The notes under the pieces are model-generated. The model did not search any database. It saw nothing but the letters and a program-made list of their open reading frames with translations, and had not been told where the DNA came from. 64,000 nt of DNA, from the IMG/VR virus record IMGVR_UViG_3300045107_000413, positions 32,001-96,000 of that record. The stretch is one strand, 5' to 3'. The translations under genes and the position numbers were made by a program. Shown piece by piece: positions 14,514 to 50,509 of the stretch; the first letter of the stretch is position 1; each line of letters begins with the position of its first letter. The stretch comes from a virus.

Positions 14514-14610
14514 GCGGCTGTAGCTTAAATGTGGCATGGGAGTTGGCCGCTCATGCCTGAAGGGGAGAGCGCACGAGAGTGAGGTGCAGGTTCGATTCCT
14601 GTCAGTCGTG
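14514..14610 (+). ncRNA. Aberrant tRNA-like RNA with expanded D-loop and shrunken anticodon arm
   Basis: GCGGCTG/CAGTCGT acceptor, TA-GCTT..GAGC D stem, CAC-GAGA-GTG hairpin, GCAGG-TTCGATT-CCTGT T arm; TATACT -10 at 14501-14506. Confidence 0.6.
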
Positions 14611-19684: not shown

Positions 19685-19831
19685 AGCACCCCCTTGAGAG
19701 AGATGCTACAATGAGCAAAAGCTCTTCCCGATTGGTGGAACTGGTACCACGTCTCACTTTGGATGAGAAGGTTGGAAGTTCGAGTCTTCCATCGGGAGGT
19801 ATCTTTGCAATCAGAGAAGGAGAAGGTATCC

Positions 19832-30861: not shown

Positions 30862-31896
30862 GTGAGTGATATTGTACCACAAAACCCGCCTGAACAAACT
30901 CCTCAACTTCCAAGAACTCCTGGCATCTATCATCTGCTCAACATCATTACGGCGCATTCTTACATCGGGTCTACCACAAACCTTCATAAACGAAAGACTG
31001 AACACCTGAATTCCTTGAAGAAGAATGTTCATCCCAACATTCACCTGCAACGTGCTTTTAACATTGATGGAGAGGCGGCATTTACATTTCAGGTACTTGA
31101 GCATGTGAGTGACCCCTCCCTTCTTTTAGAGCGTGAGCAGTATTGGATTGATACACTCAAGCCCGAATACAACATCAGCAAACTAGCCGCTACTAATCTT
31201 GGAACAAAGCGCACTCCTGAGCAACGTGAAAAAATGCGCAAAGCCCAACTAGGGAAGAAGCATCCTCCTGAATTTGGAGCTAAGATATCTGCTGCTAATC
31301 GTGGACACAAACATACCCCCGAAACTATTGCCAAGATATCTGCTGCAAAGAAGGGCAAGCCCTCAAAAAGTAAAGGGAGACCCAAGAGTGAAGAGACAAA
31401 AGAAAAGATACGTAAAGCCCAGGCTGGTAAACCACGAAATCCTGAATCTATTGCAAAGGCAAAAGCCACTCGCAGGGAGAGACCATATAAGCACACCTCT
31501 GAGGCCCGTGCAAAGATATCAGCAGCATCAAAAGACAGAGTAGTTAGCGAAGAAACACGTGCAAAACTAGCAGAGGTAAACAGGGGAAGAAAGCACACTT
31601 CTGAAGCACGTGCCAGGATGAGAGAGGCCCATAAGGACAAGCCTGGCCCTAATCTTGGGAAGCAATTTACCTCTGAGCATCGGGCAAATCTAAGTACCGC
31701 CCATAAAGGGAAACCAGCCTGGAATAAGGGAAGGACTTGTACCCCTGAAGAAAGAGAGAGGAATAGTGCTAGCAAAACAGGAAGTACATGGAGTCCCTTG
31801 CGCCGCGCCCGCTTTGAAGCCAAAAAGGAAGCCAAGAAAAAGGCACAGCAAGAAAACCAGCCTCCTACTTTATGGGACAATGAAGGCACTGTATAG
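30862..31896 (+). CDS. GIY-YIG homing endonuclease with many NUMOD3 repeats
   Basis: PGIYHL...YIGST..R...H...LQRAF...EREQYWID...PEYN; HTxEARAKIS repeats. Confidence 0.9.
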   Translation: MSDIVPQNPPEQTPQLPRTPGIYHLLNIITAHSYIGSTTNLHKRKTEHLNSLKKNVHPNIHLQRAFNIDGEAAFTFQVLEHVSDPSLLLEREQYWIDTLKPEYNISKLAATNLGTKRTPEQREKMRKAQLGKKHPPEFGAKISAANRGHKHTPETIAKISAAKKGKPSKSKGRPKSEETKEKIRKAQAGKPRNPESIAKAKATRRERPYKHTSEARAKISAASKDRVVSEETRAKLAEVNRGRKHTSEARARMREAHKDKPGPNLGKQFTSEHRANLSTAHKGKPAWNKGRTCTPEERERNSASKTGSTWSPLRRARFEAKKEAKKKAQQENQPPTLWDNEGTV

Positions 31897-40647: not shown

Positions 40648-41281
40648 ACTCGTCTTTTCTGTCTGTTCGTTCTGTTTGGCTCACTCTTCTTGTATGCCCT
40701 CTCAGCTTTGTTGGCTCGCTCTGTCTATATACCCGTTCAACACCGATGGCTCATTCACCCATGTTGCCTGCTCACACTCTTTTATTCACTCCGATTATTT
40801 GCCTGCTCAGCCTCAATGGTTCGCTCTTCTCGTATGCTCTTCATTCCGTGTGACTCGCTTACGTCTTTGCCCTGTTCTCATCTCTGGCTCGTTCACATCC
40901 CATTGCCGTCTCTTGCTCGTTGACTCATTCTGCTCCCATGCCCCTTCATTGCACATGACTCGCTTCTGGCTTGTGCCTGTTCACAACCTCTGGCTCACTC
41001 CCTTTTTCCTGCCTGTTCCTCTCTTGTGGTTCACTCTACTTTTGTGTCTGCTCACCTCAAATGGCTCACTCGCAGTCTATGCCTGCTCTGTTGATGTGGT
41101 TCACTCTGCTGATATGTCCGCTCTTCGTTTGTGGCTCACTCAACCACCATGTCCTCTCAGTGTTGTTGGCTCATTCACCTGTTCTGCCTGCTCATTTCCT
41201 ATGACTCACTCACACTCCCTGCCTGCTCGATTCTTATGATTCGCTCTGACTCTCTGGTATCTCAACGCTTCTGATTCATTC
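40642..41281 (-). repeat. TIGR-like dual-repeat guide array, 18 units of ~35 nt
   Basis: Plus-strand consensus TGGCTCACTC-N8-TGCCTGCTC-N8; starts at 40642, 40677, 40712 ... 41237, 41272; variable segments differ between units. Confidence 0.88.
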
Positions 41282-42292
41282 AGATTGCTGCTTGCGCTGT
41301 GCCAGCCCCCGCTTGAAACGGGCAATTTTCACGGCAAGGGAGGCGTGATCGGGCATCTCCGGTGCGCTGACTTCTTCCTCATTCACTGCGTCTAGCACAG
41401 AGAGGTCAACCAGTTCTTCATCCTGTGCCACCTTCAAGTCAGCAGGCAGCGGCCAGTAGGGCGGCTTGATGAGGGCGCTATGCCCTAAATGGGAAAGCAC
41501 ATACGGCTCCGGCGGGGTCTCTTTGTACTCTGCCTCATACCAAACGTAGTGGAGATGCGAAAGAAAAAGTTTGACGGCAAACCGTCTGGCGCGGGCGTGA
41601 ATGTGGGCGGGCGGGAGTTTGCCGGACTCATAGCAGGCGCGCGCCTTTGTATCGGTGCCGTAGCGTTTCTTTTGCAGGGCAAGGGCGGCTTGATCAGCAA
41701 ACAACCCTAACTCATTAGCTTCTATCTCTTGCGCCTTGCGTCTGGCGTAGACATGCCCGTAGATGTCACGGGGTCGGTTTTGTACTTTGCAGAAACTCTC
41801 CCCGGCAAGGAAACAAACGACCTTGAGTTTGGCATTCCAGGGCCGCTTCTGTCCCTTCTCCCACGTCACCGACGGGTTAAAGCCTGCATAGGAGATAATG
41901 TGTCCGGCGTAGGGGGCCTGCGTGATGTCGATATGGGCCAGCAGCCCTGATGCCAGTACGGGGCCGATGCCGGGGAGAGCGCGCAGCCACTCACCTACAG
42001 GGGATTGGGCGCGGCTGTAGGCATCCAGGGCCTTCTGGATGTTTTTTTCCAACCCCTCGGCATTGCCATACATCCACCTGATGAGGTCATGGGGTTCGCC
42101 TGACTCAGCGAGGGCGCGCATCTGGTTGCCGAAACGAATCCGGTAGCCTTGCACGGTATAGTAACTATCGACAAGGTACCGTGCCTCAGCTTGCGTCATC
42201 GTCTCCGCCGCCTTTTTCAAGTCCTTGCTCAGTCGCACAAACGGCTCTAAAGTGGCTTCCGCTAGTTCAAGCGCGGGGTCAGTCGTGGTCAT
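41276..42292 (-). CDS. IS110/Nop-domain RNA-binding protein without a nuclease domain (TasA-like)
   Basis: YYTVQGYRIRFGNQ coiled coil, WLRALPGIGPVLASGLL, SYAGF, HARARRFAVKLFLSHL; no RuvC-like DEDD N-terminus; array abuts the stop codon. Confidence 0.8.
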   Translation of the reverse strand: MTTTDPALELAEATLEPFVRLSKDLKKAAETMTQAEARYLVDSYYTVQGYRIRFGNQMRALAESGEPHDLIRWMYGNAEGLEKNIQKALDAYSRAQSPVGEWLRALPGIGPVLASGLLAHIDITQAPYAGHIISYAGFNPSVTWEKGQKRPWNAKLKVVCFLAGESFCKVQNRPRDIYGHVYARRKAQEIEANELGLFADQAALALQKKRYGTDTKARACYESGKLPPAHIHARARRFAVKLFLSHLHYVWYEAEYKETPPEPYVLSHLGHSALIKPPYWPLPADLKVAQDEELVDLSVLDAVNEEEVSAPEMPDHASLAVKIARFKRGLAQRKQQSE

Positions 42293-42337
42293 AGGTTCCT
42301 TCTCCTTCTTGCAAGAATGATACGTCTTGTTGAGAGG

Positions 42338-42366
42338 AGTATAGCAGGAAGAGGAGCATCGTGCAA
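42338..42366 (-). promoter_or_regulatory. Promoter for the TasA-like gene and array
   Basis: TTGCAC-N17-TATACT with extended TG. Confidence 0.6.
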
Positions 42367-42386
42367 GGGGTGATGAGAGAAAAGTC

Positions 42387-43148
42387 CTATGCAGGCGTTG
42401 GTTGTGCGGAGAGTGAGCAGTAGAAGCGAATCTCCTCAGCAGAGAGCGCGTCTTCCAGCGCCACCTGCTCCCACTCTGGCGGGGCAATGCCGTCTATCTC
42501 ATCGGTGATATTGCCCCCGTGTCTTACGCAGATATAGGCCGATGGGTCACGCACGGCTATCAGCGTCACGTCCCGCTCTAGCAACCCTTGCAAGTAGCGC
42601 GCATCTTCCCCCCTGTTCACCTCCGCAAAACGCAGGCCATCTACCCAGAAATCACGCCAGAACATGAGCGTTCCCGCGCGTACCCCATGCCTGAAGAGGG
42701 CATCATGCACGCGCGCGGAGGGCTGCCAGAGCGTCATATTACGGGTTCTGAGCAACCTGTCCATGTGCAGGGCGCTCACTTCCCCTTCCTGACTGAGCAG
42801 GGGCGCAACTTGCACAGAGAGGCGGTGCGGTCTATAGACATCATCATCGTCCCAGAGGGCAATGATATCCCCGTGTGCTAGCCCGCAGGCCATGTTACGT
42901 TTTGCGCCGAGGGTAAGGCCGGAAAGATCGCCGGAGAGCAGGCAATAGAAGATGTTGGGTTCGACGGTCATGCTCATCATGGTAAGCGGGCCGAAGCCTG
43001 CATGTTCGTCAATGATGATGAGTTCTTTCGCGGGATAGTCCTGCTTTTTGAAAAGTTCAATAGCATGCGCAACAAAACGATGTCTGTTTTTCGTTGGCAT
43101 AATGCAGCTAATACGAGGATATTCCACCACATCCACCTCTTCCACCAC
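42387..43148 (-). CDS. Glycosyltransferase family 2
   Basis: ISCIMPT..R, QDYP..ELIIID, LGAKRN, WDDDD, GED. Confidence 0.88.
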   Translation of the reverse strand: MVEEVDVVEYPRISCIMPTKNRHRFVAHAIELFKKQDYPAKELIIIDEHAGFGPLTMMSMTVEPNIFYCLLSGDLSGLTLGAKRNMACGLAHGDIIALWDDDDVYRPHRLSVQVAPLLSQEGEVSALHMDRLLRTRNMTLWQPSARVHDALFRHGVRAGTLMFWRDFWVDGLRFAEVNRGEDARYLQGLLERDVTLIAVRDPSAYICVRHGGNITDEIDGIAPPEWEQVALEDALSAEEIRFYCSLSAQPTPA

Positions 43149-44016: not shown

Positions 44017-44661
44017 CTATCGCTTGCGCACACTCACCTGCATATCTCCCCACGTCAACTCAACATCCTGCTTCACCCCCTCTAGCAAGGAGTCTCCCAC
44101 CACACGGCAAGCGAGCGCCGCCAGCACCTGCGCAAATGGCCTCGTCAACGGATACTCACACGGCCCCTCTATGCCGTCTTGCGGTATCAGGTAATCTGGC
44201 TCCCACAACCCAGAGCCATACAGCCCGTCAGCACTGAAACCCACATGCAGACAGGGGATATCATAGCACAACGCGCTTGCAGAAACCGCCTTGCGTCCTG
44301 CACGGTTATCCAGCGCGTCAATAATGAGAGCAGCACTCACTAAATGCCCGCCTGCGCTGTTCTCATCCAGCAGCACAGCAACGGGCGTGATTTTTGCAGC
44401 AACGGCGCGATAGAGCGCATTTGCCAGCGCCTTGACCTTCCATGCGCCGATATCCGCGCGGACATAGGGCTGGCAGGACAGGTTGCGCTCCTCTACCCGC
44501 CCGTTGTCAATCAAGGTCAGGCGGGCATAGCCCATGCGGGCAAGGTTTTCTGCAATCGGGCCACCGAGGGAGCCAACGCCGCAAATGGTGATGGGCATGT
44601 CACGCACCTGCGCGAGACTCCGGTATTGTTCTTCATGGTAGAAGGGGCTTTGCATGTTCAT
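44017..44661 (-). CDS. ThiF/MoeB/E1-like adenylyltransferase
   Basis: ICGVGSLGG..AENLARMG...LID..RVEERNL..Q; DALDN; C-terminal PCEYP. Confidence 0.88.
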   Translation of the reverse strand: MNMQSPFYHEEQYRSLAQVRDMPITICGVGSLGGPIAENLARMGYARLTLIDNGRVEERNLSCQPYVRADIGAWKVKALANALYRAVAAKITPVAVLLDENSAGGHLVSAALIIDALDNRAGRKAVSASALCYDIPCLHVGFSADGLYGSGLWEPDYLIPQDGIEGPCEYPLTRPFAQVLAALACRVVGDSLLEGVKQDVELTWGDMQVSVRKR

Positions 44662-44945
44662 GTGATATTCTCCTTGTACCAGTCTGGTCTAGGAAACCTA
44701 CCGCTAAAGGTGATTTGCTCCTCTGCTGTGCAGGTAATGTCCGTAGCATCATCCCAATAGCGTTCTAGCGGTTCCCCTTCAGGCAAGTAGGCCACAATGA
44801 TAGCAAAACGGTCATCCCCTGCGGTACCCGTATGCCACCAGGGATAGGCAGGGTTGAAGACGAGCGGGCGTACATCCTCAACTGATGCCGTCTGAAAGCG
44901 GTACCGCCGCCACTGTGTACTAGTCATCGTCCTCATCTCCTTCAT
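44658..44945 (-). CDS. Hypothetical protein
   Basis: Overlapping co-oriented ORF. Confidence 0.55.
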   Translation of the reverse strand: MKEMRTMTSTQWRRYRFQTASVEDVRPLVFNPAYPWWHTGTAGDDRFAIIVAYLPEGEPLERYWDDATDITCTAEEQITFSGRFPRPDWYKENIT

Positions 44946-45840
44946 ACTGTTGCCAGCCAGGGCGGTGTTCCATCACGCTCACTAAACTGGTTAAGTCGAA
45001 TTTCCTATCCTCACCAGAGAGGCATATCCCTGATGAGATCACGGTCATATCCCGTGCGACGGTAGAGCGGTAACGGTGCGTCTCACTGCCATCGCTCCAC
45101 TCAACCACCAGATAGCCCGCCTGTCCCTGTGTGGCTTCCATCTCCCGGAAACTGATGAGTCGCCCGCCCGCCTTTGCGAGCGCATGCCGGAGCATCTCCT
45201 CTACCGCCCGCCCGCGCTGCCTCGCTTGCACTCGTGCCACATCTACCTGATGGAGTTGGTCCAGTACCAGCACGCGCCGCTCAGAACTGGACAGGCCCGT
45301 AAGGGAGACGCCCGCCTGTGCCTCCCGCAGCCGCTCGCCGTGTTCCGGGTCAGCGCGCATATCCGGGCCATCGTACCAGCACGTCGCGCCATCAACGCGC
45401 ACAATGACGCGCTCGTATCGCTCTGCCCCGTCTGATGGGTCACAGAGGTAGACGGGGAAGGGGTCATCGGGCATCTGGAAGCGCGTCATTGCATCAGAGG
45501 CATTGTAGGGGAGGGCGTACCAGGCACCGGCGCGCTTGCGGCGCTCATCAGGCCAGAGCAAGAGGGCGCGAAGCGCAGGGAACTGCTCTAAGTATTCGGC
45601 CCGTTGCCAGGGGAGTGCCTCTGCTACCAGCATTACGCTCCGGCTATCACGCGGGCGGAAGCACCCCCAACCCACAAAGGGGCGTTCAGGGATGAACTCA
45701 TAGACCATGCCGCCGTCTATGCGCGTCCTTACCTTGCCATGAGGAAGCAGGGGCGCGATGATGGAACGGGCAAGCAGGGAACGCTCGGACTCGGCCATCT
45801 GGGTGATGAGACGTAGGGCATCATGATAACGTTTGGGCAT
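44920..45840 (-). CDS. Hypothetical protein of the TROVE-ThiF unit
   Basis: 306-aa ORF; C-terminal SSGICLSGEDRKFDLTSLV with one Cys. Confidence 0.7.
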   Translation of the reverse strand: MPKRYHDALRLITQMAESERSLLARSIIAPLLPHGKVRTRIDGGMVYEFIPERPFVGWGCFRPRDSRSVMLVAEALPWQRAEYLEQFPALRALLLWPDERRKRAGAWYALPYNASDAMTRFQMPDDPFPVYLCDPSDGAERYERVIVRVDGATCWYDGPDMRADPEHGERLREAQAGVSLTGLSSSERRVLVLDQLHQVDVARVQARQRGRAVEEMLRHALAKAGGRLISFREMEATQGQAGYLVVEWSDGSETHRYRSTVARDMTVISSGICLSGEDRKFDLTSLVSVMEHRPGWQQYEGDEDDD

Positions 45841-46157: not shown

Positions 46158-46481
46158 TCAAGACGCTCCTCCACTTTCCGGCAAGGGTGCTTCGAGTTGT
46201 TGTATCCTTTTCTGTATTTTCTCCATGTCAGGCCAGCACTCCATATCTGATATTTCATCAAGACGGCGTTGGATAATGACAGGAGAAGCAAAAGGCGAAG
46301 CAGAACTCAGGACATGGAATGCGAAATCATAGGCGCGGCAGGCAATGAGGTGTTGCACGCCCTGAAAATACTCCTCATAACTGGCAATCCAGGTATTTTC
46401 TCGGTAATGATTCCATGCTTCATCGAGTTCCTGAATGAGCAACGTTGCAAAGCCTGCAAAGTGGCTGTCACGCTCACTCAT
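46158..46481 (-). CDS. Hypothetical protein, paralog of 20074-20382
   Basis: MSERDSHFAGFATLLI. Confidence 0.65.
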   Translation of the reverse strand: MSERDSHFAGFATLLIQELDEAWNHYRENTWIASYEEYFQGVQHLIACRAYDFAFHVLSSASPFASPVIIQRRLDEISDMECWPDMEKIQKRIQQLEAPLPESGGAS

Positions 46482-47947
46482 GCCCTCACCTGCTCTTTCT
46501 GGTCAGGACGCACTGGAAGGGGTGTCGCCATGATGGTATCGATGAGTTCTTGCCGTGAAGGAGCAGCGAGGAGTGCAAGCAGAGACGGGTACGAATAATA
46601 GTCGCTCTTCTCAACGGGAAAGGTACTAAACTCGATGCCTGCCTTGCGCAAGCCGTCCTCAAACTCCCTATTCGGTGTTCTCGTTGCCACAATACATACT
46701 GCTGGTCGGATATGCAATGCCTCGCTATACTCCCGGTAGGCATCGACAAAGCGCGGGGCGGTGACTTCTTCCTCATCCGTCACAATCACAATCTGCTCTA
46801 CCAGTACCCCGTCTTTGCGCATCTTGACCAGGGGCGCGCCAATGGCAGTAGAGCCGTTAGCCTTGATGTAGCGAAATGCCTGCTCCCAATCAGAAAGCAG
46901 TGGGCGGCGTCCCTCTGGCACTGTCACCGTGATGGGGAACGCCTCACTGTCAAAGGCGTAGACGAAGAGGCCGTGCGTAGCGACTGCTGAGACCAGGGCG
47001 GCAATCTGCTTTGCCACCTCAATGGCCGCGCTCATGGAACTGCTCTTATCGGCAAAGATGGCCGTCGGGCGCGTAATCTCTGTCTTCTCAGCGATACGAG
47101 CATCTGTCACTTCCAAGAGCTTTGCTTCCGTCTCTGCGTCCAGTGCGACCTTCTCCGCCGCTTTCTTTGTCTTGAGGGTCGAGACCCGCCTGTCCTTCTT
47201 TGCCCCCTCAAGCTTGCCGTCAATAAGCTTTTTCAGGTCGGGGTGATCGAGCGCGCCGCGCCGCTTCAGCATGCCCATGCTATTGATGACCTCCTGCGGG
47301 GTCATGGCCTCCACCAGTGCTACCAGCAGCGCAGGGGTGACAGACTTCACGGCGGCAATGGCGGTAGGATAGGGGATGCTATGCGCAAGGATGAGGCGCG
47401 CCTGCTCGGTGCTGTCCTCCGTCTTTGCAAGCTTCTTGAGGGCTGCCTGTGGGCTTCCCTCCGGCGGTAGCCCATCAAAGAGGATGGCCTGGGCGCGGGG
47501 GCTTGGGTGAATGTGCAGGGAGGCATAGAGGTGCTTCATCGCAGCACGGGCGCGCAACACCGCCCCGTCGAACTGCTTCTCGTTCTGCTCACGGGTTGAG
47601 AGATAATGAGCAATGGCCGTGCGCAGGGAACGCGGGACTTTCTTGCACTCTTTCGTGGCATGATCTAACACGCGGGCGACCTCATAGGGGGCAAGCGATT
47701 GCAAGAGCATCCAGGCCGCGCCGCGAAACTCTGGATACTCAGAGGTGGCAAGGTGCGCCACAAAGAGGACTTTGTGGTCGCGCACTTCCCCACGCGCAAA
47801 GTACCAGGGGGCGAGGTGCGCATAAAAGAGCGGGTCACGGGCAAGGGCGTCGGTGTGCAGGGGTGCCAACTCTGCCAACTTGCGGTGCGGCGTCGTGAGA
47901 AAACTGTTGAGGATGCCGAGACGCACATCCGTTTCAGTCTGTTCCAT
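46478..47947 (-). CDS. Divergent TROVE/Ro60-like protein with C-terminal vWA domain
   Basis: Helical N-terminus (DPLFYAHLA, VRD, LYASLHIHP, MTPQEVINSMGML) then DKSSSM, GSTAIG, IVTDEE; adjacent Y-RNA-like RNAs. Confidence 0.78.
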   Translation of the reverse strand: MEQTETDVRLGILNSFLTTPHRKLAELAPLHTDALARDPLFYAHLAPWYFARGEVRDHKVLFVAHLATSEYPEFRGAAWMLLQSLAPYEVARVLDHATKECKKVPRSLRTAIAHYLSTREQNEKQFDGAVLRARAAMKHLYASLHIHPSPRAQAILFDGLPPEGSPQAALKKLAKTEDSTEQARLILAHSIPYPTAIAAVKSVTPALLVALVEAMTPQEVINSMGMLKRRGALDHPDLKKLIDGKLEGAKKDRRVSTLKTKKAAEKVALDAETEAKLLEVTDARIAEKTEITRPTAIFADKSSSMSAAIEVAKQIAALVSAVATHGLFVYAFDSEAFPITVTVPEGRRPLLSDWEQAFRYIKANGSTAIGAPLVKMRKDGVLVEQIVIVTDEEEVTAPRFVDAYREYSEALHIRPAVCIVATRTPNREFEDGLRKAGIEFSTFPVEKSDYYSYPSLLALLAAPSRQELIDTIMATPLPVRPDQKEQVRA

Positions 47948-48290
47948 CGGGTTTCTCCTTCTTCTTGTTTCGTATCACCTTCACAATGGTGACAATGGCC
48001 TCAATTACGTCTTTCGGCATGTCCAATTCTTCTAAACACAGATAGAGCCATGCCCATTGTTCTGCCTCGGTAGGGATGCCTTCGGGGTTATGGAGAAACA
48101 GGTTCGCATCTATCCTGAGCCACTCTACCAGTTTCGTAAAACTCTCAATATCAGGGAGTTTGCCACTGGCAATACGGCTCATGGTTGCCACACTCACCCC
48201 CGCCTCTTTTGCCGCTTCATGGATGGAGAGGCCGTTTTTTGTGAGATGAGATTGCAGGGTCGCACTGAAGAGGGTACGGTCAAAACTCAT
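47934..48290 (-). CDS. XRE-family HTH regulator
   Basis: LSIHEAAKEAGVSVATMSRIASGKLPDIE. Confidence 0.85.
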   Translation of the reverse strand: MSFDRTLFSATLQSHLTKNGLSIHEAAKEAGVSVATMSRIASGKLPDIESFTKLVEWLRIDANLFLHNPEGIPTEAEQWAWLYLCLEELDMPKDVIEAIVTIVKVIRNKKKEKPDGTD

Positions 48291-48305: not shown

Positions 48306-48737
48306 CTACAAAAAGATGGCATTTCCTTCCTGATGATGCACGAAATTTTCTTCAAGCATCTGTTTCCACTGCTCTGCCGTCGCACCATAACTCCCAAACG
48401 TGGTAGCATGCTCAGCACACCACGCACATAACTCATCGAGACTGGCAAAGACAGGGGATTGTGGGGAGCCTTCCGTCGTGGTTTCCCATAATTGATAGCC
48501 TTCCCCTTCTGGCGGCTCTAAACAGGTGTAGTTGACATACTCATTGCCATACCCATAGTTCACGGTAGGGAACTTGAGGAGTCTACCAAAATGCAGTTCC
48601 AGCCCGTGCCGTTCCTCATAACTCATCTCAGGGAAGTATTGCTCAAGCAGGCTTTCAAAGGATATCATGTACCCCGGCCATATCTTATCAAGCGGCCAGT
48701 CAAAGTCTAATGGAACACGTTTTAAGACTCGACCCAT
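48306..48737 (-). CDS. Phage hypothetical protein
   Basis: MGRVLKRVPLDF...GYQLWETTTEGSPQSPVF. Confidence 0.65.
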   Translation of the reverse strand: MGRVLKRVPLDFDWPLDKIWPGYMISFESLLEQYFPEMSYEERHGLELHFGRLLKFPTVNYGYGNEYVNYTCLEPPEGEGYQLWETTTEGSPQSPVFASLDELCAWCAEHATTFGSYGATAEQWKQMLEENFVHHQEGNAIFL

Positions 48738-48769: not shown

Positions 48770-49363
48770 TCACCGTGACCGTATATGCATGACGCGCTTC
48801 TCCCAGAGTGCAGGCAACCGCTCAAGCACAGCCTGATTGGCCTGCCGCACCGCCTCTGTAAGATGGACGGCGCGTTTCTGGTAGTGGGGTGAGGCCAGCC
48901 AGTCCGGGTACTCCGTGCTTCCCCTGTCCTTATTGCATTTGCGACACGCTGTGAGCAAATTCTCAGGGATAGTTGGCCCGCCGCGTTCCCAGAGGAGAAT
49001 GTGGTCAACGGAGAGCGGAACGCCGTCACGCCCACAGTAGCGGCAGGTGTAGTTATCTCGCTTGAAGACGGCCCACTGCATATGCATATCAATCTGGCGC
49101 TGGCTCTTGCGCAGGATAGCCTTGCTGAGCGTGCCAGAGGCGTCCGTGAGCAGGATTTCTGTTTCCAGCAGGTCAGTTTGCCGTAAGAAGACTTCCCACT
49201 CAGCAAGGGTCATGGGAAGCAGGCGCATTTGCGCGATGCCCTCTTCTTTGTCAGGCAGCAGCGTGAGCAGGCAGTCATCAGCACTGGCCCACAGCGCGCC
49301 TGCAATCTGGTAGCGCGTGCCGATGTCGTAGAGGTTGATGTCTGTCAATGTAGTTGTGTCCAT
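48770..49363 (-). CDS. HNH endonuclease
   Basis: RDNYTCRYCG...VDHI....GG....NLLTACRKCNKDRG. Confidence 0.88.
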   Translation of the reverse strand: MDTTTLTDINLYDIGTRYQIAGALWASADDCLLTLLPDKEEGIAQMRLLPMTLAEWEVFLRQTDLLETEILLTDASGTLSKAILRKSQRQIDMHMQWAVFKRDNYTCRYCGRDGVPLSVDHILLWERGGPTIPENLLTACRKCNKDRGSTEYPDWLASPHYQKRAVHLTEAVRQANQAVLERLPALWEKRVMHIRSR

Positions 49364-49397
49364 GTGTCTCCTTCTCTCAAAAATGGGTACAACAAAT

Positions 49398-49559
49398 CCG
49401 GGGCGTACAAGTTGCGTGAGCAGTCAAACAACGGTGCGTCTACCAGTTTCGCCACATGTTCACAGGAACATGAGAGGACTCGAACCCCTACACCCTATCA
49501 GGTACCTGCTTTTAAGAGCAGGAATGTATGTATGCTCATGCCGTCGGGGTACGCCCCGG
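49398..49559 (-). ncRNA. Y-RNA-like RNA 4, permuted tRNA-Leu-like module
   Basis: 11-bp terminal stem; CUUAAAA loop, long variable arm, T arm, closed acceptor, D arm GGCGAAACUGGUAGACGC. Confidence 0.8.
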
Positions 49560-49570
49560 CATAAAATAGC

Positions 49571-49716
49571 CTGGGACGCGCAAGTTGAGCGGGCCGATAA
49601 CACGCCTTTACCATTTGGCTATCCGGGCAAGGAAAGAAAGCCCGGACTAGGAATCGAACCTAGATACTGCGAGAAGCAGATTGTTTGTATGCCTGCCCTG
49701 TTATGGCGCGTCCCAG
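49571..49716 (-). ncRNA. Y-RNA-like RNA 3, permuted tRNA module
   Basis: CUGGGACGCGC terminal stem, CAUAAC/AACUU, T arm CUAGG-UUCGAUU-CCUAG, closed acceptor, D arm. Confidence 0.8.
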
Positions 49717-49731
49717 AAAGATGAGACCGGT

Positions 49732-49872
49732 CTATTCCGTCTGAGTTGAGCGAGCCGTGTTTCCGGTTTCCCGGCAACGATGGGACTTGAACCCATTACA
49801 CTAACCTTAAGAGGGTTATGCTCTACCAGATGAGCTACGTTTGTAGGCTTGCTCTGTTATGAGACGGAACAG
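49732..49872 (-). ncRNA. Y-RNA-like RNA 2, unpermuted tRNA-Lys(CUU)-like module
   Basis: Same scaffold; D arm, UAACC-CUCUUAA-GGUUA and T arm in normal order. Confidence 0.78.
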
Positions 49873-49910
49873 GCAAAGAATAAGAGCAAAGAAAAAGAAT
49901 AGTATGTGTA

Positions 49911-50055
49911 TGAGCCGCGCAAGTTGTGTGGACTGTGAACCGTAGGCGCTCTACCACTGAGCCAATCCCCCTCGTGGGGGATGATGGATTCGAACCACCG
50001 ACTTCCTGCTCCAAAAGCAAGGGTTTGTACGTCTACACCGTTATGGCGCGGCTCA
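49911..50055 (-). ncRNA. Y-RNA-like RNA 1, permuted tRNA module with a UUG anticodon-like loop
   Basis: GAGCCGCGC terminal stem, CAUAAC/AACUU, T arm, AUCCCCC-ACGA-GGGGGAU, D arm GCUCAGUGGUAGAGC. Confidence 0.8.
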
Positions 50056-50066
50056 ATATGTGTTAT

Positions 50067-50279
50067 TTACCCATACACCGCTTCAGGGCGCACGATGATA
50101 GCCGTCTGCTCGCGCACCACGACGTGCGCGGCTAGCTTGTCGGCAGGCATATCCAGGTATGCTGCCGCCGCCTGCTTCAGTCGGGCGTCGGAGGCGGCTA
50201 CCGGAATATCCAGCAGGCCGTAATCGCTGATCTCATGACTGCGCCCGTCTACCCGCACGTGAACCATCTGTGTTGCCAT
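50067..50279 (-). CDS. Small ubiquitin-like (beta-grasp) candidate ending in Gly
   Basis: 70 aa, VHVRVDGRSHEI...IIVRPEAVYG*; AAGGAG RBS; same unit as the ThiF/E1 gene. Confidence 0.65.
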   Translation of the reverse strand: MATQMVHVRVDGRSHEISDYGLLDIPVAASDARLKQAAAAYLDMPADKLAAHVVVREQTAIIVRPEAVYG

Positions 50280-50331
50280 CGTCGCGCTCCTTCCACTATC
50301 TTCCCGTGTTGTGAACAATCTTCTATGGAGA

Positions 50332-50360
50332 ATAATACTACGGTCTGTCAATGGGGACAA
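50332..50360 (-). promoter_or_regulatory. Candidate promoter of the Ubl-Y RNA-TROVE-E1 operon
   Basis: TTGTCC-N17-TATTAT. Confidence 0.5.
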
Positions 50361-50509
50361 GGGATGGGACTTTTGGGCAAGAAGAAAGCCTGCTCATTGA
50401 TACCGGTGCGAACAGGCTCAGGAACACCGTTGAAAGGAAATTTCAATGGATACTGCGATCAGTGTTGTCCAAACCTCCCCAAAGAGGTTACTTGTAGTAT
50501 AGCACAGCC

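Follow-up and report, generated by a model that had tools for sequence, protein, structure and literature searches.

Four tandem RNA units of 139-162 nt each, here called R1 to R4, are encoded on the minus strand (positions 50055 to 49398) of a 64-kb window, i.e. the whole stretch of DNA that was analysed, which corresponds to bases 32001-96000 of the 122.5-kb virus record IMGVR_UViG_3300045107_000413. It is highly probable that these units are Y RNAs of a distinct lineage, belonging to a new Ro60/Y-RNA system that the phage carries whole. They are read in this way because they recur beside a gene for a Ro60-like protein, on the same strand as that gene and with stems that covary; the evidence covers the structure of the RNAs, their conservation and covariation, and their genomic linkage to a Ro60-fold protein. 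The record, rated complete by CheckV, is that of a tailed phage (marked by portal, capsid, tape-measure and tail genes), described as coming from soil or a hot spring.

The RNA array and the Ro60-like gene

All four units, i.e. R1 (49911..50055), R2 (49733..49871), R3 (49572..49715) and R4 (49398..49559, all on the minus strand), adopt the same frame in unconstrained minimum free energy (MFE) folding, so that the shared four-unit scaffold proposed for 49398..50055 in a preliminary description of this DNA is borne out by the minus-strand sequence as well as by its folding. Each unit consists, in this order, of a terminal stem, a 5' loop, an inner stem, a junction, a module resembling (part of) a transfer RNA (tRNA), a 3' loop and the closing strand of the terminal stem. 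The terminal stem measures 10-12 bp and the inner stem 8-9 positions including one A.C mismatch; the internal loop between them is asymmetric, its 5' side having 7 nt and its 3' side 5 nt. The 5' loop reads CAUAACN in R1-R3 and CCCGACG in R4, the 3' loop AACUU in R1, R3 and R4 and AACUC in R2, and the junction (UACAAAC in R1-R3, UACAUAC in R4) pairs through its 3' part as a connector helix of 3-6 bp. Matches to the core pattern AC-N10-TACAWAC number four in the window, all of them within the array and on the minus strand, against an expected count of 0.29 per window, and none of 100 shuffles reached four. Thirty permuted-type units, R1, R3 and R4 among them, were aligned with MAFFT to build a covariance model, which returns exactly four matches in the whole 122.5-kb phage, namely the units themselves: 114.1, 102.2 and 93.4 bits for R1, R3 and R4 (which are in the training set), and a full-length match of 43.4 bits (E=7e-7) for R2, which is outside it.

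That the array lies on the minus strand is fixed by the T- and D-loop motifs, by Rfam and covariance-model matches that occur on this strand only, and by the orientation of the genes. The G.U pairs, which had originally been put forward as favouring the minus strand, are a weak guide, since they make up just 9 of the 176 MFE pairs over the four units, and in every one of these it is the plus strand that reaches the lower folding energy.

The modules (hereafter heads) are of two kinds, as had been noticed from the letters and as the folds now confirm. In R1, R3 and R4 the order is circularly permuted, with a hairpin followed by a T arm, a 7-bp acceptor closed by a loop (4 nt, ACGA, in R1; 11 nt in R3; 4 nt, CUGU, in R4) and a D arm, while R2 has the normal tRNA order of D arm, anticodon arm and T arm, with a 4-bp connector in place of the acceptor stem and then a GAAA-capped hairpin. 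The claim that anticodon-like loops are retained holds for two of the units, R1 (UUG, in the loop UUUUGGA) and R2 (CUU, in the loop CUCUUAA), both of which have the canonical form of 5 bp and 7 nt. It does not hold for R3, where the hairpin has only 4 bp and a 5-nt loop and the D arm 3 bp, and in R4 the loop of the UAA-containing hairpin is 8 nt long, or 6 nt if the stem is taken as 6 bp. R4 is class-II-like in carrying an extra variable-arm hairpin, and because the array combines class-I-like with class-II-like D and variable arms, it is plausible that the heads were built repeatedly from different tRNAs. ARAGORN calls a tRNA in none of the four units. When the heads are un-permuted in silico it calls R1 as tRNA-Gln(UUG), leaves R3 and R4 ambiguous and gives a cloverleaf call for 44 units of the family, with many different anticodons, in a test that is permissive because many trim points were tried per head. 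The only ordinary tRNA gene that ARAGORN finds in the whole phage genome is also a tRNA-Gln (window 19725-19799). Its possible role as the template from which R1 was copied was dropped, as blastn-short gave no match between the two.

The presumed protein partner is encoded 1.45 kb downstream of the array on the same strand, by an open reading frame (ORF) of 489 aa (46478..47947, minus). Its single match to a Ro60-type domain is to vWA_Ro60 (E=0.059), and it also matches phrog_850, an 'RNA-binding protein' family (9e-5). A profile of 20 homologs, compared with the PDB, finds the Ro60 of phage phiLo (9l5y/9kop, E=3e-7), followed by human RO60 (9nen, 1.1e-5), Deinococcus radiodurans Rsr (2nvo, 7.6e-5) and Xenopus Ro (1yvp, 8.6e-4). 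With the AlphaFold2 model of the protein (predicted local distance difference test, pLDDT, 84), the 12 best Foldseek matches are all Ro60, Rsr or TROVE proteins, with E from 2e-11 to 8e-9 and template modelling (TM) scores of 0.47-0.63 across ~500 columns. Residues D300, S302 and S304 of the MIDAS (metal-ion-dependent adhesion site) in the C-terminal vWA domain are invariant in the homolog alignment. The protein thus combines what characterises Ro60 structurally, i.e. a predicted helical-repeat ring, a C-terminal vWA domain with MIDAS, and homology to solved Ro60 structures. By profile and modelled fold it is a divergent Ro60, with a TROVE-fold ring plus vWA domain, and the putative partner of R1-R4; on the strength of the genomic linkage, the scaffold would be the part of the RNAs that docks on the ring.

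No close homolog of the protein (~60% identity) has a name more specific than 'VWA domain-containing' or 'hypothetical'. The sources of these homologs are Ktedonobacteraceae, Dictyobacter, Reticulibacter, Thermogemmatispora and Ktedonosporobacter, in some cases on contigs of 6-9 Mb, which suggests that the protein is also cellular and that the phage probably has its host among the Ktedonobacteria (for the host range of the family, the names that these sources give to the homologs were used).

Recurrence, linkage and covariation among relatives

An exact scan of IMG/VR for CATAAC-N5-A-N4-TACAAAC followed by AACTY yielded 46 loci, which were rejected as chance matches because a terminal stem of 5 bp or more is missing in all of them. 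Relatives were reached instead along three routes, through the HNH protein encoded just after R4, a degenerate head motif and the Ro60-like protein. The HNH protein led to four phage loci (L048-L051), in which tRNA arrays mixed with partial-tRNA and YrlA-like matches stand upstream of the HNH homolog, and in which the units have the frame of R1-R4 written in other words (5' loop YACU/UGACUG, junction UACAYG, 3' loop (C)GACUY/CGACUA). The degenerate head pattern led to 28 viral loci, many with scaffolded units, and a tblastn search with all phage ORFs places a homolog of the 489-aa ORF directly after the RNA units in 19 of them.

Linkage was also tested in 80 metagenome loci that were fetched by the Ro60-like protein alone, and whose closest named homologs are from Ktedonobacteria. 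A scaffold finder (set to demand a terminal stem of 5 or more pairs, an inner stem that pairs, the junction motif and a RAC(U/A) 3' loop) detects 110 units in the 112 kb upstream of the gene on its own strand, versus 8 in the other ~712 kb of both strands. The covariance-model search near Ro60 homologs, which had been suggested at the outset and was run with the model of 30 units, gives 201 matches at E<=0.01 in this set, 199 of them on the strand of the Ro60-like gene; in L113 the matches lie on the opposite strand. By hand tally, 64 of the 80 loci have a match, as do 54 of the 58 that include at least 400 nt of upstream sequence. Among 35 further loci, full-length matches were found in 13 of the 16 with a Ro60-like gene versus 1 of the 19 without, the other matches being partial and to ordinary tRNAs. 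In the metagenome loci the RNA units abut the Ro60-like gene. One of them (L088:3134-3399) has, in the interval between its last Y-like unit and that gene, a match to the HEARO RNA of 35.6 bits, i.e. below the gathering score of 83.

Covariation was assessed on the MAFFT alignment of the 30 units over five helices (terminal, inner, T, acceptor and D). Pairing is found in 94.6% of the paired cells, compared to 36-50% with the partners slid by 1-3 columns, changes occur on both sides in 30 of the 35 pairs, and none of 500 shuffles matched any of the observed covariation measures; these values include pairs whose formation had been demanded by the unit filters, namely those of the inner stem, the five inner terminal pairs and the T and acceptor stems. 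The bias-free pairs of the set are the outer five of the terminal stem (which measures mostly 9-14 bp across the family), and these are 91-100% paired with 4-5 pair types each. Conservation is not confined to helices: among the 30 units, position 5 of the 5' loop is A in all (column A15) and position 6 is C in 28, the junction UACA-N-AC and the ACU of the 3' loop are invariant, and a CGCGC/GCGCG clamp as well as a GAGC/GCUC box are also conserved. Moreover, the loop words go with the protein clade, since units beside proteins that are 44-67% identical have the 7-nt loops and UACAMAC, and those beside phage proteins of 26-35% identity have YACU/UGACUG, UACAYG and (C)GACUY. Conserved unpaired positions, together with clade-linked loop words, are the pattern that would suit the binding site of a cognate protein.

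The heads vary far more than the scaffold. Of 144 units, a rule-based heuristic classifier with rough rules assigns 43 to the permuted and 37 to the normal-order type, finds a T arm alone in 25, no T arm in 24 and T arm plus acceptor alone in 3, and sorts 9 as mini-heads (36-44 nt) and 3 as long heads, so that the mixture seen in R1-R4 (three permuted, one not) is typical of the family. By a hand count, ~21 of the 37 normal-order units have a separate hairpin of 5 bp and 7 nt, as do ~14 of the 43 permuted ones, in which it lies 5' of the T arm or else 3' of the D arm. Such RNAs are found in cells and phages, in numbers that reach five or more per locus.

Several of these heads are peculiar in themselves. 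The mini units (L049:2288-2364; L051:1895-1970; L057 1154-1227, minus; L110:1948-2037; L112:3190-3278) have the full scaffold and a head of 36-40 nt, consisting of a short hairpin and a GNRA-capped hairpin, with no T arm. At the other extreme are heads of ~135-140 nt that share a stretch containing UAAGGUAGC (L098:2042-2226; L146:3238-3415; L166:1974-2162); a resemblance of these to a segment of 23S (large-subunit) ribosomal RNA is unsupported, as Rfam gave no rRNA match at E<=0.05. In the normal-order units of L057-L084 the D arms are near-identical and the anticodon-loop triplets very different. Read by eye, the triplets of the phage normal-order units are UGA, AGU, AAU, AAA, AUA, UGU, UAU, UCA, CGU, GCC and CUU, of which several in L057-L084 (AGU, AAU, AAA, AUA) start with A, which is unusual for the anticodons of bacterial decoding tRNAs. 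A different arrangement occurs in two related phages (L048:2383-2636; L050:2352-2476), where the Y-unit scaffold is inserted, as a closed hairpin, into tRNA genes at the region of the D arm or D loop; these genes have UCA and CAU as anticodons, an encoded CCA and an open acceptor end. The arrangement amounts to a circular permutation of the Y-like units, and positions 2353-2468 of L050 score 48.4 bits as a tRNA across 116 nt.

Relation to known Y RNAs and rival explanations

Published Y RNAs are compared here as they are portrayed in excerpts of the respective reports. In 254 bacteria as well as 22 phages, YrlA RNAs are encoded on the strand of a TROVE-annotated Ro60 and within 4 kb of it (Chen et al. 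2014, PMC4201824). Those of Salmonella Typhimurium, Mycobacterium smegmatis and mycobacteriophages resemble the array in that a stem interrupted by an internal loop joins their 5' and 3' ends, in their position relative to a Ro60 ortholog (here from 49398, the end of the array, to 47947, the start of the ORF, both on the minus strand) and in being often multicopy. With R1, R3 and R4 they further share a distal, permuted tRNA mimic composed of T arm, loop-closed acceptor and D arm, which R2 does not have. The 7-bp acceptor stem of these three units is also that of the M. smegmatis RNA, which is cleaved by RNase P and gains CCA (PMC4201824). The general plan of a Y RNA, an end-paired stem with internal loop plus a distal effector module, is what both the MFE folds and the covariation display.

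The array family nevertheless departs from YrlA in several respects. The motif GNCGAAN0-1G, which is defined on the 5' strand of the Ro60-binding module of YrlA (PMC4201824), is replaced by YCYNACN, RACUY, UACAMAC and the CGCGC clamp. In several heads an anticodon-like hairpin is kept as an element of its own, whereas the YrlA 'anticodon stem' serves as connector only and the YrlA head structure is without an anticodon loop (preprint 10.1101/312249). In addition, R2 and about a quarter of the family have the normal tRNA order without an acceptor stem, and the partner protein is too divergent for the Pfam TROVE model. In terms of scores, Rfam YrlA (RF02553, gathering score 69) matches R1 with 29.1 bits over model positions 23-86 of 114, R3 with 16.6 bits and R4 with 16.5 bits, and reaches at best 40.9 bits in the relatives; the Rfam scan proposed in the preliminary description thus gave no strong full-length match to an existing family. 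R2 scores 49.7 bits against Rfam tRNA (RF00005; model positions 4-67 of 71), yet is not a complete cloverleaf, as a 7-bp acceptor and a free 3' end are lacking.

Two other Y RNAs share part of the picture. Yrn1 of D. radiodurans is, by description, a Ro60-bound RNA that has a hairpin like an 'anticodon arm' among its tRNA-like features. Relative to the RNA ends, the orientation of its T and D arms is opposite to that in YrlA, so that both orientations exist among Y RNAs (PMC4201824). In the array both orientations are adjacent on one shared scaffold, which is unlike Yrn1, and Yrn1 is described as retaining the metazoan-like Ro60-binding helix (PMC4201824). In phage phiLo of Thermus the phage-encoded Ro60 binds two Y-like RNAs, Yrl1 and Yrl2, from upstream of its gene, which parallels the layout here; the features by which these RNAs were defined are a bulge with CGAA and a stem-bulge-stem shape, and no tRNA-like description of them was met in the excerpts (PMC12135203). 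The phiLo Ro60 is, as mentioned, the best profile match of the 489-aa protein, albeit a remote one.

Several observations weigh against reading R1-R4 as Y RNAs of a Ro60 system. The Rfam YrlA model aligns with the tRNA-like core alone (with 16-29 bits for the window and no more than 41 among the relatives, versus 69), a regular-expression search found GNCGAAN0-1G in none of the 30 aligned units, R1, R3 and R4 included, and Pfam TROVE (PF05731) has no match in the 489-aa protein or in the six-frame translation of the phage genome. To these may be added the pairing demanded by the unit filters, four of the 58 loci without a model match (L120, L121, L137 and L138, by hand tally), one weak full-length match in L060, where no Ro60-like gene is visible, and, in the phage, the presence of HNH, 143-aa and helix-turn-helix (HTH) ORFs between the array and the Ro60-like gene. 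The originally proposed distinct class of Y RNAs on tRNA-derived modules is, on the other hand, strengthened by the Ro60 homolog downstream and by the recurrence of the units, as well as by the very fact that YrlA scores are below threshold and its motif is absent.

Permuted tRNA genes, as found in Cyanidioschyzon merolae and some archaea, hold the 3' part of the tRNA, a loop-joined acceptor and the 5' part within a leader/trailer helix, and yield real tRNAs by way of a bulge-helix-bulge, a splicing endonuclease and a ligase. Gene order and flanking helix are alike here. R1-R4 could be circularly permuted or split tRNA genes, with the flanking stem as a processing or splicing signal and functional tRNAs as products, either re-joined or as two non-covalent halves. 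The tRNA-Gln(UUG) call of un-permuted R1 and the calls of 44 units fit such a reading, as do the 7-bp acceptor stems, the acceptor loops that begin with N-CCA in two related phage units (L049, L051) and the tRNAs of L048 and L050, with their scaffold hairpin in the D-loop region and open CCA end. However, the un-permutation test is permissive, R2 has no acceptor stem whatsoever, R3 and R4 have no canonical 7-nt anticodon loop, and by the heuristic classifier ~36 of the 144 units have no T arm and 9 are mini-heads. Furthermore, the scaffold is conserved in sequence beyond what pairing demands, and the linkage between the RNAs and a Ro60-fold protein is tight. Inspection by eye revealed no bulge-helix-bulge and no hammerhead or hairpin ribozyme core in the array region, and Rfam at E<=10 no splicing or ribozyme element there, for which reason a splicing or ribozyme reading was dropped. 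Permuted tRNA genes are thus a very unlikely explanation; a full-text literature search found no report of such genes in phages.

Somewhat less improbable, though still unlikely, is that the RNAs are free-standing tRNA decoys (e.g. against anticodon nucleases or tRNA-targeting defences) that act independently of the Ro60-like protein, the stem providing stability or processing. The many different triplets in the anticodon-like hairpins across relatives would suit decoys, and so would a phage-borne element whose counterparts in related phages stand inside tRNA arrays. Against this, the same RNAs abound in loci whose closest homologs are chromosomal and from Ktedonobacteria, always beside the Ro60-like gene, the sequence-conserved scaffold loops shift with the protein clade, and many heads have no anticodon hairpin. 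It has also been considered that the long helices are mere stalks for RNase III-type processing, which would free tRNA-like RNAs from a polycistronic transcript, the proximity of the Ro60-like gene being operon hitch-hiking. Terminal and inner stems of ~20 bp with an asymmetric internal loop, the lack of a terminator and a single promoter-like site for the whole array are in line with this. Yet the loop nucleotides and UACAMAC are invariant across proteins that are just 44-67% identical, the scaffold motif changes along with the Ro60-like clade, and 199 of the 201 model matches lie on the strand of the protein, which makes this the hardest of the explanations to credit, all the more because processing and Ro60 binding do not exclude each other.

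Taken as a distinct lineage of Y RNAs, the array and its Ro60-like protein add a large new lineage, of bacteria and phages, to those in which Ro60 and Y RNAs are known as partners. In a full-text search that did not extend to tables S1 and S2 of PMC4201824, which may list Chloroflexi, none of the matches listed reported Y RNAs from either Chloroflexi or Ktedonobacteria; a preprint on viruses of Asgard archaea that mentions Chloroflexi is unrelated to the subject. For the role of the tRNA-like heads of bacterial Y RNAs this lineage is a natural experiment, as one docking scaffold carries heads that are permuted or unpermuted, with or without anticodon-like hairpins, or reduced to mini-hairpins. 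Such variety points to head-specific partners and provides direct handles for pull-downs. Because the TROVE model misses the whole clade, Ro60 homologs, and hence Y RNAs, are under-counted, and phage tRNA mimics reported as partnerless may in fact have a partner.

The surrounding operon and phage genome

The RNAs and the Ro60-like gene form part of a longer set of minus-strand genes. Directly 5' of the array lies a small ORF of ~70 aa (50067..50279, minus), with tblastn homologs in 41 loci and no Pfam match. Its product ends in VRPEA(V/I/L)(Y/F)G, at the same Gly in all 23 aligned sequences, and this invariant C-terminal Gly suggests a protein similar to ubiquitin or to sulfur carriers. A match to a sigma-70-like promoter (50332..50360, minus; a consensus match only), the only one on the minus strand near the array, lies upstream of the small ORF, and no terminator-like sites were found in 49200-50500. 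On the other side, 35 nt after R4, starts the ORF of the HNH endonuclease (48770..49363, minus, 197 aa; Pfam HNH 8e-11), followed by the 143-aa ORF (48306-48737) and the HTH ORF (47934-48290), the last one before the Ro60-like gene. HNH homologs also come after the RNA arrays in L048-L051; none of the three ORFs is at this position in the metagenome loci.

Beyond the Ro60-like gene is an ORF of 306 aa (44920..45840, minus), a conserved operon partner with tblastn homologs in 41 loci and an invariant G-I-C-L motif near its C-terminus. Its AlphaFold2 model (pLDDT 86) shows several beta-barrel domains with weak matches to S1/OB-like folds, the best Foldseek match being domains D3-D4 of ribosomal protein S1 (E=7.9e-4); as the TM scores are just 0.15-0.24, the S1/OB-like assignment is tentative. 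The set is completed by a ThiF/E1-like adenylyltransferase of 214 aa (44017..44661, minus; Pfam ThiF 8.7e-22), which has homologs in 25 loci and is matched by the E1-E2 models of PADLOC (up to 3.4e-15). PADLOC and NCBIfam gave nothing for the Ro60-like, 306-aa, 107-aa, 106-aa, 95-aa, 143-aa and small ORFs. The location of the Ro60/Y-RNA module in a conserved operon hints at a possible tie to the activation of a ubiquitin-like protein or sulfur carrier, and its linkage to both a Gly-ended protein and an E1-like enzyme suggests that the Ro60 ribonucleoprotein may be connected with that chemistry.

The order of the module (small Gly-ended protein, Y RNAs, Ro60-like protein, OB-like protein, E1-like enzyme) would be compatible with one transcript that starts upstream of the small ORF and is processed into the four RNAs. 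The conserved scaffold of each RNA would then bind the Ro60-like ring, through a docking site made up of terminal stem, asymmetric internal loop, mismatch-bearing inner stem and UACAMAC junction. The tRNA-like heads, some with anticodon-like hairpins, could present different tRNA surfaces to tRNA-binding factors and thereby tether these to Ro60 or gate it, as proposed for other Y RNAs, and R1, R3 and R4, with their closed 7-bp acceptors, may be nicked by RNase P in the manner of M. smegmatis YrlA. The phage probably took the whole module from its host, its closest named relatives being in Ktedonobacteria.

A more specific version, which is speculative and on balance doubtful, is that the system works as a modular display, in which one Ro60-docking scaffold carries swappable tRNA mimics, each of them steering the ring to, or sequestering, a tRNA-specific factor (an anticodon nuclease, synthetase or modification enzyme). 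The Gly-ended, E1-like and OB-like proteins would act together with the ring, and the host module would have been captured as a counter-defence or RNA-control device. If true, this would be the first tie of Ro60/Y RNAs to ubiquitin-like activation, and these would be the first anticodon-addressed Y RNAs.

Some minor features of the phage genome may be mentioned. Just past the E1-like end of the module, adjoining a glycosyltransferase ORF, lies an ORF of 403 aa with an IS110-family transposase domain (window 41276-42487, minus; Transposase_20, E=1.3e-5). Genes of the homing-endonuclease type number two, the HNH ORF after R4 and a GIY-YIG/NUMOD3 ORF among the structural genes (30862-31896, plus). 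Between the tail genes there is a 97-nt match to Rfam tRNA (window 14514-14610, plus) that scores 34.5 bits, i.e. above the gathering score, is uncalled by ARAGORN and may represent an interrupted or aberrant tRNA.

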